DNA of 61,517 nucleotides from a virus: positions 1 to 61,517 of IMG/VR virus record IMGVR_UViG_3300035128_000105; one strand, written 5' to 3'. A model generated the notes under the pieces. The model searched no databases. It was given only the letters and a program-made list of their open reading frames with translations, and was not told the origin of the DNA. This document shows, one piece after another, positions 11,145 to 60,706 of the stretch; position 1 is the first letter of the stretch; the number at the start of each line of letters is the position of its first letter. The translations under genes were made by a program, and so were the position numbers.

Positions 11145-11160
11145 GATCGCAGCTGCGATC
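11145..11160. repeat. 16-bp perfect palindrome GATCGCAGCTGCGATC (copy 1)
   Basis: read from sequence; 17 nt upstream of ATG 11127 (minus). Confidence 0.95.
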
Positions 11161-11497
11161 ATCCCCCGATCCAGTCGGCGAGAATTTGCTTACATGTCTC
11201 GGGACTGCCCCCTGACATAGCAGCGATGCACGCATCCCAAATGTCTTGAGGCACCATGTCTACGAGGTGTTGCGCAACGTTGCTTTCAGCGTCTGGATCG
11301 CCTTCACGTGCAATCTGTGCACGAATGCGTGTAGTGGTGAGAGTCGTAGGTAAAGCCAAGTTCTGGACGATGTCACTGTTGCTGAGTACGTAAAACTCCA
11401 TCAACCTGGCGTACGAGCGTTCGCCGTCAAGAAGCCCTTCAATGCTGAGCAACACAGCAAAAGATGGTCGCCTACCGATAGGACGCGCGTTGCTCAT
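11159..11497 (-). CDS. hypothetical protein
   Basis: ATGA overlap with upstream gene; stop codon lies inside the 16-bp palindrome. Confidence 0.35.
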   Translation of the reverse strand: MSNARPIGRRPSFAVLLSIEGLLDGERSYARLMEFYVLSNSDIVQNLALPTTLTTTRIRAQIAREGDPDAESNVAQHLVDMVPQDIWDACIAAMSGGSPETCKQILADWIGG

Positions 11498-12099
11498 GAC
11501 GGTACCGGCAACCGAACAACACCTTTCCATGCATTGGTGCGAACGTGCTGGTGAACAAACTGCTCGGCGAATTTGTAGTCCTCTGTCTCGATGATAGCTT
11601 TGAGGGCTTCGAGAATCGTTTCATCTGGTAGCTCGTCCTTTCCGCTGAAGTCGCGCCAGCGCCAGGGCGTTTCGATGTCCACGATGTACGAACGACGCAC
11701 ATGGAGAGGACGAACATTGAGCGACAGTAGGCGCAACTGCTCCCACAAGTCTGAGACCATCAGCGACTTGTAAGGACCCTTGTTTTCCAGCATCGCCGTT
11801 GTCGTCACGATCGACTGTTTGAGGTTCGTTGTAATACCGTCGGGTACCCAGGCGTGGTAGTAGTCTCGACGTTCGGTGTGGCCATTGATGATGCGTGTCG
11901 CTGAACGCAAGATGCACTCTTGGTGAAGACAGGTAGCCAGGTCCCGGCAAAATTCCAGACCGTAACGCAACGACTTCCAGTCCGAGAGTCGGATCCCGTC
12001 GGCCACGCGAATGACCTCGGCTGGAGAAACATCGGGTAGTTCTGACGACATGTCTCGAAGTATACCGACAGCCTGTGACAATGCTCGATGGATGTGCAA
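11494..12099 (-). CDS. hypothetical protein
   Basis: 201-aa ORF. Confidence 0.4.
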   Translation of the reverse strand: MHIHRALSQAVGILRDMSSELPDVSPAEVIRVADGIRLSDWKSLRYGLEFCRDLATCLHQECILRSATRIINGHTERRDYYHAWVPDGITTNLKQSIVTTTAMLENKGPYKSLMVSDLWEQLRLLSLNVRPLHVRRSYIVDIETPWRWRDFSGKDELPDETILEALKAIIETEDYKFAEQFVHQHVRTNAWKGVVRLPVPS

Positions 12100-12109
12100 C
12101 GCTTGACCT

Positions 12110-12529
12110 GTGTTACCTCAAGCCATCGTCGCGCAAGGAATTGTGGCGACCGCACAGCGCTACGGATCTGACGCTAAAACGGTGCGCGACGCGACGCACG
12201 AAGCGTGCCACGCCCTTGAAGCGAACGCCGAAAGGTGGAACCGCGACACAATCCACGAAGCGCTCGTTCACGCCAATAGCGGTGAGCGTTGGCGCTTGCT
12301 TGCCGCCGAGGTTCGTGCACGCGCTGTAGAACGACGGGTTTGTGAGACACTTGGTGTTCAGTACGATGCAGCAAAGTGGCTCGACATTGCTGCGCTCGAA
12401 ACAATGAAGACCGGCATTCAGGGCGTGCCTGCCGATTTTTGGTCCGTAGCTGTCACCCGTGCGATGACAAACGAGCACGTCCAGGACATGGTCGAACGCA
12501 TCTTGAAATTGTGGGACCAGCCCGTATAG
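12110..12529 (+). CDS. hypothetical protein
   Basis: 139-aa plus-strand ORF in gap between minus-strand genes. Confidence 0.4.
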   Translation: MLPQAIVAQGIVATAQRYGSDAKTVRDATHEACHALEANAERWNRDTIHEALVHANSGERWRLLAAEVRARAVERRVCETLGVQYDAAKWLDIAALETMKTGIQGVPADFWSVAVTRAMTNEHVQDMVERILKLWDQPV

Positions 12530-12530
12530 A

Positions 12531-13325
12531 TCAGTCGCTGTCGGTTGTCTGAAACACGTCGGAACTGAGTTCGCCGAGCATATCCAGCAGCTTATAGCCA
12601 AGCTCGTAGCGGCCGATCTCCCACGCACCTTCAAACGCCAGACGGTATTCTTCTACAGACTCGCGGCCGTCTAGCGCATCACGGTAGCGCCAACGTACGA
12701 CCCGTTCGGCGACGTCGTGGAACGGTAGTCCCTCGTCCAGCACACGCTTGACGATCCGGTGAAGGAACGTGTTGTAGGCGTGCCCTCCACCGTCTGAACG
12801 TGATGCCCATTTTTGGATGAGGACGGTCGCAAGTGCTGCGATCTCGCCTGCTGAAAACCAACGGCTCGCGATGGGCTGTTGGGCCTCAGGCAACGCGTTC
12901 GGGTCAATACCGTAGGCACTTTGCCGTGCCTCGTCGCCGTATTGTCGGGCCGTGTAGTAGATCCGTGAGATGTGGTCGTCGCCGTTGTACTCTTCGAGCG
13001 CTTCTGGCAAAAAGACGTCCATGATCTCACCGTTAGCGAATGCCTCAACAAGCCGGAGAGCCCGTGTGATGGCCTTTCGGGCGTCCGGCAGCTCAACATG
13101 ACTATCGTCGGTCTCGGCCTCTACGCGGCCCCTGAACGGCCCGTGACCCTCGTCGATGCTGCGTAGCTTTGGCGCACGGGGAAGCACGAGACGACACAGG
13201 TCGGCTGCGAGGCCGGCAGCACGAGAACCGTGGTTCCACGGCAACTTAAACCAGGGAGCGTAGTCACCGTCCATGTCTTGTTCCCATTGCTGCTTCCACG
13301 ACGATCGAGCGAGCAATCTTTCCAT
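12531..13325 (-). CDS. hypothetical protein
   Basis: ORF 12531..13448 trimmed to internal ATG; start uncertain. Confidence 0.45.
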   Translation of the reverse strand: MERLLARSSWKQQWEQDMDGDYAPWFKLPWNHGSRAAGLAADLCRLVLPRAPKLRSIDEGHGPFRGRVEAETDDSHVELPDARKAITRALRLVEAFANGEIMDVFLPEALEEYNGDDHISRIYYTARQYGDEARQSAYGIDPNALPEAQQPIASRWFSAGEIAALATVLIQKWASRSDGGGHAYNTFLHRIVKRVLDEGLPFHDVAERVVRWRYRDALDGRESVEEYRLAFEGAWEIGRYELGYKLLDMLGELSSDVFQTTDSD

Positions 13326-58809: not shown

Positions 58810-58866
58810 GGCGGTTTGTCATACCCAGTTGGTAGCGTCAGGGGTACCTAACAAGGAGTCCCAGAC

Positions 58867-59940
58867 ATGACCGCCAAACGTAGCCCCCTCAAAGACTCTA
58901 GCCTCAGCGACATGCTTGCCCAGATCGGCAACCGTCGTCTCAATCCGGTCTCCCTCGCCGAACAGCTCTGCGACCACTGGAGCTTCGACCTCTACAGCCG
59001 GAACCCCGCACCTGCTCTGGTCGAGGCAGGTGCCGTCAAACCCACCGATCTGGACCTGGCGACGTTCCTCGCGGCGCTTGTTCGTCGTAAGGCAGTCATC
59101 AACTTCCCGACGTACAAGGCGAGGCGTGGGGGCGCAAAACGCAAAGGCGAGCACGTGATCAGCCAGGACAACCGTCACGGCAACCTGCTCGGACTGCGCT
59201 CGAACAAAAACGTGTTCTCGTTCGGGGTGCTCGTCAACGACATGAACGTCATGACGACTGACGACGACGGCAACCAAAGCGTCGGCGCCTACCGCAACTT
59301 CATGATCATCGACGTAACTGGCGACTGGTACAACGCCGGCTGGCAACGGCTCGAATTCGTACCGACGGCCAAAGAAAACGACTGGCTCCATGACAAGAGT
59401 CTGTGGACGAACAACACGATCGTGTTCAGCAACTTCGTCCATCCCAACCGTTGGACGTCGTTTTTTGGCAAGTACTATCTGGCCTCGAAGGCCATGATCG
59501 ATCGGCTGAGTGAAGAAACGAGCGCGTTGCGGCGTTGGCTCAAAGAGAACCGCGATCCGGCTGACAAAAAATCGTGGTCAAAAACGACCGGTACAGGTGA
59601 GACGACGGTTAAGACCGTCACGGCATTTCAGGCGGTCGTAGACACGCCTACATTGCGCGGCAAGTTTCGATTGCCGACGAGTGTCAAAGGCGCAAAGACG
59701 CGCCTCAAGACGCTCAACGGTTTTGTCACCGACCTGCGGTTCGCGACCCGTGCGACCGAGCTGGCGTTCCACAAATACGGCAAGGACCGCTTGCCTAGTT
59801 GGATGAAGGGTGTTGAATGGGAAGAGGGATTCCGGCCGCCGCGTGGCCGAACACTATGGAATCGGATCGAGATCCCCTCGACCAAAGACGTCAGCCTGCG
59901 CTACCGCACGTGGGACAAGTCAGAAGAAGTCGCCGCCTGA
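58867..59940 (+). CDS. hypothetical protein
   Basis: AAGGAG SD; 357 aa. Confidence 0.5.
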   Translation: MTAKRSPLKDSSLSDMLAQIGNRRLNPVSLAEQLCDHWSFDLYSRNPAPALVEAGAVKPTDLDLATFLAALVRRKAVINFPTYKARRGGAKRKGEHVISQDNRHGNLLGLRSNKNVFSFGVLVNDMNVMTTDDDGNQSVGAYRNFMIIDVTGDWYNAGWQRLEFVPTAKENDWLHDKSLWTNNTIVFSNFVHPNRWTSFFGKYYLASKAMIDRLSEETSALRRWLKENRDPADKKSWSKTTGTGETTVKTVTAFQAVVDTPTLRGKFRLPTSVKGAKTRLKTLNGFVTDLRFATRATELAFHKYGKDRLPSWMKGVEWEEGFRPPRGRTLWNRIEIPSTKDVSLRYRTWDKSEEVAA

Positions 59941-60125
59941 TGTCCGCAGGTGCGGTCATCGCGCATGCCGTGCTGGCGCTGGGTACCTTGGTGTATTGGT
60001 ACCAGGCGCGCGGGCCTGGTAAGGAGGCTAACGACTACGGAGAGAGCTGCCCAAACGTTGGGCATGCGCGCGGGTGTACATGCGATCGCGTTGAAGGTTC
60101 TGCGCTTGGGAGGAGAGTCCGTTGA
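59940..60125 (+). CDS. small TM/Cys protein
   Basis: TGATG overlap. Confidence 0.3.
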   Translation: MSAGAVIAHAVLALGTLVYWYQARGPGKEANDYGESCPNVGHARGCTCDRVEGSALGRRVR

Positions 60126-60358
60126 TGCGGAAACCCAAAAACCTTCACGACTATTGCGACAAGGCGACGGCACAAGCGTTCTTGGAAAATCAGCTTGCGC
60201 AGGTTCAGTGCGCCCCAGCCGAAATGTTGTTTCGTATCAAGGTGGAGTTCTATCAGTGGAACCCGGCCTGGGAAAAAGAAATACAAAAGGCGAGAGCCAA
60301 ACCGAAAAAGCCGAAGTTTCTGGCACAGGCTGCACGACAAAAACGTAAAAAGGGCTAG
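60125..60358 (+). CDS. hypothetical Lys-rich protein
   Basis: ATG 60125 overlapping upstream stop. Confidence 0.35.
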   Translation: MRKPKNLHDYCDKATAQAFLENQLAQVQCAPAEMLFRIKVEFYQWNPAWEKEIQKARAKPKKPKFLAQAARQKRKKG

Positions 60359-60672
60359 CGACGACGACGACGTCTGATACGCGCGCGACCAAACAAGGCG
60401 CGATCTGGGTCCTCGACCAGCTCCCTATTGAACGTGTCAGGTGACACGTCGAATTGTACACCGCTCGTTGCCAGAGCGATGACAACTTCATCGCTGCCTT
60501 CATGGTACCCGCCTGGAGCGGAGCACTGCAATGCCAGCGTCGCCAAATTATCGTCGTAGGCAAGCTCCTTCAACTCGGACGCAGCTTTGTTCCAACCGTT
60601 GATAGATGTTGGAAACTTTTTCTCGGTGCGCCGTCCGCGTACGATGAACGTACATTTGCTTTGCTTCGCCAT
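60355..60672 (-). CDS. hypothetical protein with C-terminal RIRRRRRR tail
   Basis: palindrome 18 nt upstream of ATG. Confidence 0.4.
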   Translation of the reverse strand: MAKQSKCTFIVRGRRTEKKFPTSINGWNKAASELKELAYDDNLATLALQCSAPGGYHEGSDEVVIALATSGVQFDVSPDTFNRELVEDPDRALFGRARIRRRRRR

Positions 60673-60690
60673 ATGCTCAGTCTACACGAC

Positions 60691-60706
60691 GATCGCAGCT
60701 GCGATC
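60691..60706. repeat. GATCGCAGCTGCGATC (copy 5)
   Basis: 18 nt upstream of ATG 60672 (minus) and 21 nt upstream of GTG 60728 (plus). Confidence 0.95.

Follow-up and report, generated by a model that had tools for sequence, protein, structure and literature searches.

The window analyzed here is the whole of a 61,517-bp metagenomic contig (IMG/VR virus record IMGVR_UViG_3300035128_000105), and it carries repeated copies of a perfect 16-bp palindrome, GATCGCAGCTGCGATC, at short and nearly constant distances upstream of start codons. On balance, we lean toward the hypothesis that this palindrome serves as operator for a protein that binds DNA as a dimer, a repressor being the likeliest kind, and that the site is situated in promoters recognized by the host RNA polymerase. 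The palindromes stand in register with predicted -10 elements and start codons, and the arrangement is retained at orthologous genes in related phage genomes in which the surrounding intergenic sequence has diverged.

A search allowing up to two mismatches recovered the exact palindrome at five positions and two variants: GATCGCAGACGCGATC at 3802, in which the center is changed and both half-sites are intact, and GATCGGATCTGCGATC at 47050, which has a single intact half-site and had not been reported in the preliminary description of this contig. These seven matches compare with a mean of 0.04 and a maximum of 1 in 100 dinucleotide-preserving shuffles, a check that the preliminary description had itself proposed. 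The half-sites by themselves are frequent in the window (GATCGC 53 times, GCGATC 58 times), a consequence of the 2.1-fold excess of GATC that codon usage produces (492 occurrences observed, 230 expected), but only about 0.05 sites with both half-sites at the correct spacing are expected by chance. Two 8-mers with 17–18 copies, CGTTTTTG and CCAAAAAC, were dismissed as a motif, since nearly all of them are located inside genes and reflect codon bias. Every copy of the palindrome lies outside the called genes or overlaps a stop codon by two bases. The distances given below are from the palindrome end to the start codon.

11145..11160, no strand: palindrome copy 1, overlapping the TGA stop codon of 11159-11530 (-) by 2 bases; 17 nt to the start codon at 11127 (-)
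16831..16846, no strand: palindrome copy 2, overlapping the TGA stop codon of 16845-17405 (-) by 2 bases; 16 nt to 16814 (-)
48540..48555, no strand: palindrome copy 3, between the genes 47794-48507 and 48573-48941; 17 nt to 48573 (+)
58031..58046, no strand: palindrome copy 4, the sole copy with a Shine-Dalgarno sequence after it; 14 nt to 58061 (+)
60691..60706, no strand: palindrome copy 5, common to two divergent predicted leaderless promoters; 18 nt to 60672 (-) and 21 nt to the GTG at 60728 (+)
3802..3817, no strand: center variant GATCGCAGACGCGATC, in a divergent intergenic region
47050..47065, no strand: GATCGGATCTGCGATC, half-site intact on one side only and without the -10/start geometry; probably not a functional member

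The preliminary description was thus accurate in all details checked, including the five identical copies and the variant at 3802, their intergenic or stop-straddling placement and the spacing of 14–21 nt to a start codon on either strand.

What that description had missed is the promoter anatomy between the palindrome and the gene. Reading toward the nearest gene, one finds after the palindrome 3–11 nt (mostly 4–6), a TAnnnT hexamer resembling a -10 element, another 6–7 nt and an ATG or GTG start codon. The sequences that follow the palindrome, with the predicted promoters and the genes behind them, are:

11125..11139, minus strand: copy 1 promoter, GGCAG TACAAT AGCTCC ATG, with -10 TACAAT at 11139-11134, 6 nt, ATG 11127 and a gap to the palindrome of 5 nt; gene 9961-11127 (-), 388 amino acids (aa), with a membrane span at the C-terminus and no Shine-Dalgarno sequence
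16812..16827, minus strand: copy 2 promoter, GGG TAGAAT ACAGACG ATG, with -10 TAGAAT at 16827-16822, 7 nt, ATG 16814 and a gap of 3 nt; gene 16134-16814 (-), a GDSL/SGNH hydrolase
48561..48575, plus strand: copy 3 promoter, CGTTG TAGTAT TAGCTC ATG, with -10 TAGTAT at 48561-48566, 6 nt, ATG 48573 and a gap of 5 nt; gene 48573-48941 (+), a Pro-rich protein of 122 aa
60670..60684, minus strand: copy 5 promoter, GTCGTG TAGACT GAGCAT ATG, with -10 TAGACT at 60684-60679, 6 nt, ATG 60672 and a gap of 6 nt; gene 60355-60672 (-), a basic protein of 105 aa
60711..60730, plus strand: copy 5 promoter, TAGCTATGA TAAAGT CTAGAC GTG, with -10 TAAAGT at 60716-60721 or TATGAT at 60711-60716 and GTG 60728; gene at 60728 (+), a membrane protein of 115 aa
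3776..3790, minus strand: promoter at the 3802 variant, GACCTCCGTGA TATTGT CGATAT ATG, with -10 TATTGT at 3790-3785, 6 nt, ATG 3778 and a gap of 11 nt; gene at 3778 (-), 156 aa

No Shine-Dalgarno sequence precedes the downstream genes at five of the six window sites. In the stretch from 51 to 61 kb, for which there are independent gene calls, the genes without a Shine-Dalgarno sequence at 52424, 57408, 60672 and 60728 have a -10 element at 6–7 nt, which none of the genes with a Shine-Dalgarno sequence has, and the operon-internal genes are mostly preceded by a Shine-Dalgarno sequence. The mRNAs of the genes behind the palindromes are therefore probably leaderless, beginning at the start codon, in which case the palindrome would lie upstream of the transcript, at about -33 to -18. 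The -10/leaderless arrangement is seen at about 15 gene starts in the window, and the palindrome is found at only six of them, so that it marks a subset of promoters rather than the promoter as such. Other starts of this type include an ATG at 47550, which follows a strong terminator (a 13-bp stem plus a T run) and, directly thereafter, an extended -10 TGTTAGACT, all within 47489-47552 and with no palindrome. Two copies of the unit TA(T/C)CAT(G/A)GAACC(A/G)TGTCTCGA, at 3852-3872 and 4003-4017, likewise each comprise a -10 element and a leaderless start; the genes behind them are both small and begin M-S-R, and the first encodes a zinc-ribbon-like peptide of 46 aa.

Related contigs were fetched via homologs of a 357-aa marker protein encoded in the window (58867-59940) and of the protein encoded behind copy 4, here called G1. 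Five of these contigs carry the palindrome:

L027 (Logan SRR33469041_16611, full contig 57 kb): marker identity 59%, GC 62%, sites at 579, 9515, 11558, 15265, 16050 and 16099 (in 21 kb)
L269: marker identity 57%, GC 64%, sites at 7099, 7908, 7937 and 9763
L273 (Ga0483991_000001): marker identity 54%, GC 54%, sites at 1432, 7551 and 14673
L028 (Ga0373609_0000001, full contig 150 kb): marker identity 57%, at least two sites, at 9605 and 15683
L270: one exact copy, before its G1 gene

Considering only sites at which both half-sites are perfect (GATCGC-N4-GCGATC), we obtained a set of 13 from five phage contigs, and all 13 are located between called genes. The preliminary description had named copies inside coding regions as the finding that would speak against a regulatory role, and none of these sites is of that kind. 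At 11 of the 13 there is, on at least one side, a composite of 3–11 nt, TAnnnT, 5–8 nt and the start of an open reading frame of at least 70 aa; with a background probability of 0.0065 per site, the probability of observing this by chance is about 7e-23. The same -10/leaderless arrangement recurs at called gene starts of L027, L028, L269 and L273.

Furthermore, five groups of orthologous genes, G1–G5, retain the palindrome across genomes:

G1 (the gene at 58061 in the window): palindrome in the window, L027, L028 and L270
G2 (the gene at 60728, orthologous to L027 11591): palindrome in the window and L027
G3 (a highly conserved protein of 110 aa): palindrome in L027, L028, L269 and L273
G4: palindrome in L027, L269 and L270
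G5 (the gene at 3778, weakly homologous to L269 9340-9741): palindrome in the window and L269

The G2 orthologs in L269 and L028 and the G1 ortholog in L272 have the -10 element and the leaderless start and no palindrome, from which it follows that the palindrome is dispensable for the promoter and represents a regulatory addition. The suggestion of an operator-like promoter element with a regulon of its own is thus supported: the sites stand directly upstream of predicted -10 elements on either strand and are conserved at orthologous promoters of several related phages, and the putative regulon is specific to this lineage. That a clade of phages shares the motif had escaped the preliminary description. 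The motif was absent from four other related contigs (L025, L271, L272 and L274); a repeat of L025's own, AGGAGATTGCAA, was considered as a counterpart and set aside because it looked unrelated to promoters. Exact-motif scans of IMG/VR, the JGI metagenomes and 185,579 GTDB genomes returned single-copy contigs only, which is the chance level for databases of such size, and gave no clue to the host. Nothing was found in an IMG/VR search for related loci with two window proteins, and INPHARED contained no near-identical phage.

The variation among 16 oriented sites is also informative. The outer GATCs are invariant in all 16, positions 5, 6, 11 and 12 show hardly any variation, and the central four bases are free (AGCT, AGCC, GGCC, GTCT, GTGC, AAAC and others). 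All six half-site changes seen in the relatives are one-sided and none is compensated, a pattern expected of a protein operator and not of a hairpin. This bears on the proposal that the palindrome acts as RNA, either at the upstream gene's 3' end, as a terminator without a U tract or a processing site, or in the 5' leader, as a translational operator of the kind that the preliminary description had considered. A 6-bp stem with a 4-nt loop can form, the stop codon of the upstream gene extends into copies 1 and 2, copy 4 is placed immediately before a Shine-Dalgarno sequence, and the hairpin of copy 3 extends to -18 kcal/mol (z = -4.25). The remaining copies, however, fold no more stably than shuffles (z -0.75 to -2.5), and the short stem, the missing T run on the sense strand and the sites between divergent genes are not what is expected of an intrinsic terminator. 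At those divergent sites (3802 and 60691 in the window, 579 in L027, and 16050 and 16099 in a single gap of L027) no upstream transcription would reach the palindrome. Rfam matched nothing but tRNA in the window. The leader hairpin fails at five of the six window sites, at which the TAnnnT hexamer 6–7 nt before the start takes the place of a Shine-Dalgarno sequence, and we therefore consider a role in RNA highly improbable.

An operator provides a better account of these observations. The dyad combines conserved half-sites with a looser center and overlaps predicted promoter elements, as operators do. We hypothesize that a dimer would bind GATCGC-N4-GCGATC, with its free 4-nt center, across about -33 to -18 of promoters that consist of little beyond a TAGnnT-type -10 element 6–7 nt before the start codon, and that the bound dimer would block the contacts of sigma region 4 and of the spacer. 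At copy 5, one dimer could close two divergent promoters together. At G1, where the promoter is predicted to be of the TTGACA type, the operator would be located at its start site or just past it, which is also a repressing position. The -10 elements are near consensus (TACAAT, TAGAAT, TAGACT) and should thus fire unaided.

In the main alternative, the palindrome would act positively, replacing the -35 hexamer as a promoter element that is read by a phage activator or sigma-like factor in the manner of a MotA box and that defines a middle or late class of leaderless genes. An activator or -35-substitute role is possible, if rather unlikely. The spacing to the -10 element is mostly a tight 4–6 nt, there is no good -35 hexamer, and a scan for consensus -35/-10 promoters gave no more matches than in shuffles, so the region is not enriched in them. 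In 12 of the 16 sites, the distal GATC and the two bases before it (T preferred) are situated 16–18 nt upstream of the -10 element, so that the distal GATC would occupy the position of the -35 hexamer (nTGATC) of the predicted promoters. The downstream genes, too, look late or accessory: membrane proteins, the GDSL hydrolase and possible structural paralogs in G4 and G5. Yet orthologous promoters keep the -10 element and the leaderless start without the palindrome, the gap to the -10 element is 9–11 nt at four sites, and in the predicted G1 promoters the palindrome covers the -10 element or the start site, positions from which one would not expect activation. The near-consensus -10 elements also argue against a need for activation, the dyad symmetry serves divergent promoters only at copy 5, and no MotA, AsiA or sigma homolog was found in the window. 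A promoter of the MerR type was rejected in view of the missing -35 element upstream of the palindrome, an implied spacer of at least 21–22 nt and the failure to find a MerR domain.

Yet another set of alternatives involves DNA methylation. The preliminary description had pointed to a Dam-like GATC methylase encoded by the element itself, and a gene of this family is indeed present:

45945 (or 46077)..46991, plus strand: Dam-family (D12) adenine methyltransferase, TIGR00571 188 bits against a cutoff of 115

Its specificity for GATC is predicted from the match to TIGR00571 and from its best solved relative, the GATC methylase DpnM. With two invariant GATCs per site in the predicted polymerase contact region and a Dam-family gene in the same genome, methylation sensitivity of the sites is plausible. 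One hypothesis is that the operator itself depends on methylation: in hosts of a lineage normally devoid of GATC methylation, the phage Dam protein would progressively methylate both GATCs and switch the binding of the regulator or the polymerase, timing the leaderless regulon to replication or packaging. We consider this version unlikely; if true, it would amount to an epigenetic clock within a lytic phage. An even less probable version dispenses with a dedicated protein, so that the GATCs at -35 and at about -21 to -18 would by themselves set promoter strength and time expression to replication or packaging. The invariance of the outer GATCs, the methylase at 45945-46991 and the fact that GATC is not avoided in the window are all compatible with such a switch. 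It would require neither the GC/GC at positions 5–6 and 11–12, which are almost as conserved as the GATCs, nor the exact 4-nt spacing of the half-sites that is maintained; GATC alone is ubiquitous in these genomes and hence unspecific, and the enzyme's specificity is itself a prediction. We attach hardly any probability to the idea that the palindrome has nothing to do with expression and is a recombination site at mosaic boundaries or a miniature mobile repeat. Gene content does vary beside some sites (60355-60672, for example, is absent at the matching place in L027), and repeat-mediated indels have been described for a 17-bp palindrome in Cluster O mycobacteriophages (PMC4351075). But only 16 bp are shared between flanks that are unrelated, the database scans described above gave single copies only, and the constant register with the -10 element and the start codon would be left unexplained.

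Several points weigh against a repressor operator as well. Profile scans of the window proteins did not identify a DNA-binding protein to match the operator, and the rather tight spacing between palindrome and -10 element (mostly 4–6 nt) is equally expected of an activator element. L271 and L272 have a G1 gene but no palindrome, and L025, the nearest relative by marker identity (74%), has no copy of the motif. Finally, we infer both the start sites and the direction of regulation from the nucleotide sequence.

Copy 4 deserves separate consideration. The palindrome is here followed by GAGGAGG (58047-58053) and by the ATG at 58061 of the G1 gene (58061-58348, +), which encodes a basic protein of 95 aa with four cysteines, and it is thus the sole copy in the window that can lie in a 5' leader. 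The position of the palindrome before the G1 orthologs is maintained in L027, L028 and L270. The predicted promoter was missed by the consensus scan:

57994..58022, plus strand: G1 promoter, presumably weak, TTGACG, 17 nt, GATTGT

Its counterparts are TTGACA-17-GATTCT in L270 and TTGACA-18-GATCGT in L027, in which the palindrome itself supplies the predicted -10 element; in the window, the palindrome would cover about +1 to +16 of the predicted transcript. Read on the minus strand, 58018-58023 is a perfect TACAAT; its distance of 7 nt to the palindrome conforms to the usual geometry, and no start codon follows it. Its bases (ATTGTA) overlap the weak plus-strand -10 element GATTGT and are conserved in L025. 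This hexamer may drive an antisense transcript into the methyltransferase gene at 57408-58010, or it may be a relic.

By its position, the G1 protein is the best candidate for the regulator and could be an autoregulated factor. The G3 family of the relatives is a further candidate. Its structure was modeled with confidence (predicted local distance difference test, pLDDT, 81), and no structural or sequence relative was found in the PDB. Scans of essentially all window proteins against Pfam, PHROGs and NCBIfam revealed no helix-turn-helix, ribbon-helix-helix or similar domain. A protein of 95 aa, P0131 (52746-53033, minus strand), has a MarR-like, winged-helix-like sequence pattern; it has one relative among 1.8 billion representatives, and its model is poor (pLDDT 61) with no fold match. 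No homologs of the other regulator candidates were found beside palindromes in the relatives. Since the contig is only part of a genome, the regulator may be encoded elsewhere in the phage or by the host.

Dispersed repressor operators are well known in temperate phages and in plasmids: the phiC31 repressor binds conserved inverted repeats, and further examples are the C1 operators of P1 and the KorA and KorB operators of IncP plasmids (RK2). As in these systems, a short dyad site occurs here in many copies across a mobile genome, over predicted promoter elements, and would tie unrelated genes into one regulon. The sequence is different, however, and the targets are almost all predicted to be leaderless promoters with a -10 element only; nor did we find a repressor gene or any sign of lysogeny in the window. 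In T4 middle promoters, an asymmetric MotA box at -30, read by a monomer, is combined with a sigma-70 -10 element. The promoters described here likewise join a good -10 element to an element that is specific to the phage and replaces the -35 hexamer, but the site is a dyad and no MotA- or AsiA-like genes were found in the window. Another parallel is provided by promoters such as IS10 pIN and dnaA P2, which are Dam-sensitive and have a GATC within a hexamer; the GATCs of the palindrome are likewise predicted to lie within RNA polymerase contact regions. The cyanobacterial HIP1 octamer GCGATCGC is highly iterated genome-wide, genes included, whereas there are only 6 copies in 61.5 kb here, and it was rejected as an equivalent.

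The closest published parallel among the papers that we compared is the 17-bp palindromic repeat TGTTCGGNNNCCGAACA of the Cluster O mycobacteriophages, which has invariant half-sites and a variable center (PMC4351075). It is present in more than 30 copies, of which one third are in genes and most are away from promoters, so that its authors doubt a transcriptional role; they suggest a dimeric binding protein for this repeat, whose function is unknown (PMC4351075). Both repeats are lineage-specific and occur in actinophage-type genomes with predicted leaderless, SigA-like promoters, but all sites in our set are intergenic and in register with a -10 element and a start codon. The stoperators of Cluster A phages resemble the palindrome in being many copies of one site across actinophage intergenic regions; they are asymmetric repressor sites, 13–14 bp long, bound by a monomer and oriented with transcription, and they block elongation (PMC9283540), and the perfect symmetry of our site rules out this class. 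The SAS/ESAS elements of Cluster K are likewise conserved repeats at a fixed short distance before start codons and are retained with gene families across subclusters; they precede non-structural genes and consist of a non-palindromic 13-mer with AGGAG, 3–7 nt before the start codon in the position of a ribosome-binding site (PMC3203893). This class was also excluded, because our site is palindromic, lies 14–21 nt upstream, contains no AGGAG and has a -10 element in between. A search of 8 million papers did not recover the exact motif.

The marker protein has 370 homologs on contigs of up to 416 kb, which indicates that the window is a piece of a member of a large-phage clade. Its replication module includes a DnaG primase, an SNF2 helicase, a PD-(D/E)XK protein, a UDG-PolA fusion, a second helicase, a Sak4-like annealing protein, a thymidylate kinase and the Dam-family methylase, and it further encodes IF3, a truncated RF1, a thioredoxin and many proteins without a recognized family. 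Insertions of the LAGLIDADG homing-endonuclease type are present in the SNF2 helicase (28843-31485), the PD-(D/E)XK protein (31602-34355) and UDG-PolA (37332-42206); the last two also gave a match to an intein splicing domain. Only distant protein matches were obtained, to phages of Streptomyces, Arthrobacter, Bacillus and Listeria. An actinobacterial host (Actinomycetota) is probable, as suggested by the TAGnnT-type -10 elements with leaderless starts, a DnaA box TTGTCCACA of the Streptomyces/Mycobacterium type, a homolog binned with Salinibacterium and the distant matches to Streptomyces and Arthrobacter phages. A haloarchaeal virus was also considered in view of the Asp-rich codons and leaderless starts, and was rejected since the isoelectric points of the proteins are mixed and not uniformly acidic.

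Some other features of these genomes may be mentioned. The phage IF3 is full-length (7971-8507, minus strand; TIGR00168 196 bits against a cutoff of 60), and the RF1 (4645-5289, minus strand) is truncated to the PCRF and RF-1 domains. In E. coli, IF3 disfavors leaderless initiation, and its presence in a phage with many apparently leaderless genes is of note. An 881-aa protein (20936-23581, minus strand) matches a vault repeat as well as the shoulder domain of the major vault protein (E = 5.5e-26); it belongs to no PHROG family and is unusual in a phage. The divergent gap at 28564-28842, between the genes for an ORC/STAND-like ATPase and the SNF2 helicase, is a candidate replication origin that holds the DnaA box TTGTCCACA (28693-28701), a perfect TTATCCACA (28759-28767) and inverted GTGTACAC around an A run. 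A 12-nt tandem repeat, GACCAGCCAGGC, is present in five copies (31715-31775) within a gene for 917 aa. Among short words, GATC and TCGA are 2.1–2.3-fold and CGATCG is 4.2-fold over-represented, and CTAG (0.26), TTAA (0.14) and TATA (0.19) are strongly depleted. Elsewhere in the clade, L027 has an array of repeats of about 62 bp (6430-6960) adjoining an IS605-type OrfB/TnpB gene (7031-8266), and the 145-kb contig L273 has a weak match to ribosomal protein L12 (3282-3737), which is another translation-related gene.

We regard the palindrome as a genuine cis-regulatory element with good support; as a probable operator, it extends a known class of dispersed phage operators and does not introduce a new principle. 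It would provide a clean and testable regulon in a clade of large uncultivated phages in which almost all gene functions are unassigned. In such genomes, the operator would flag both the genes that are switched jointly and the starts of transcription units, in phages that appear to rely on leaderless promoters with a -10 element only. The 16-bp site could furthermore serve as bait for the regulator, and it would be a natural case in which to examine whether a phage Dam methylase gates gene expression.

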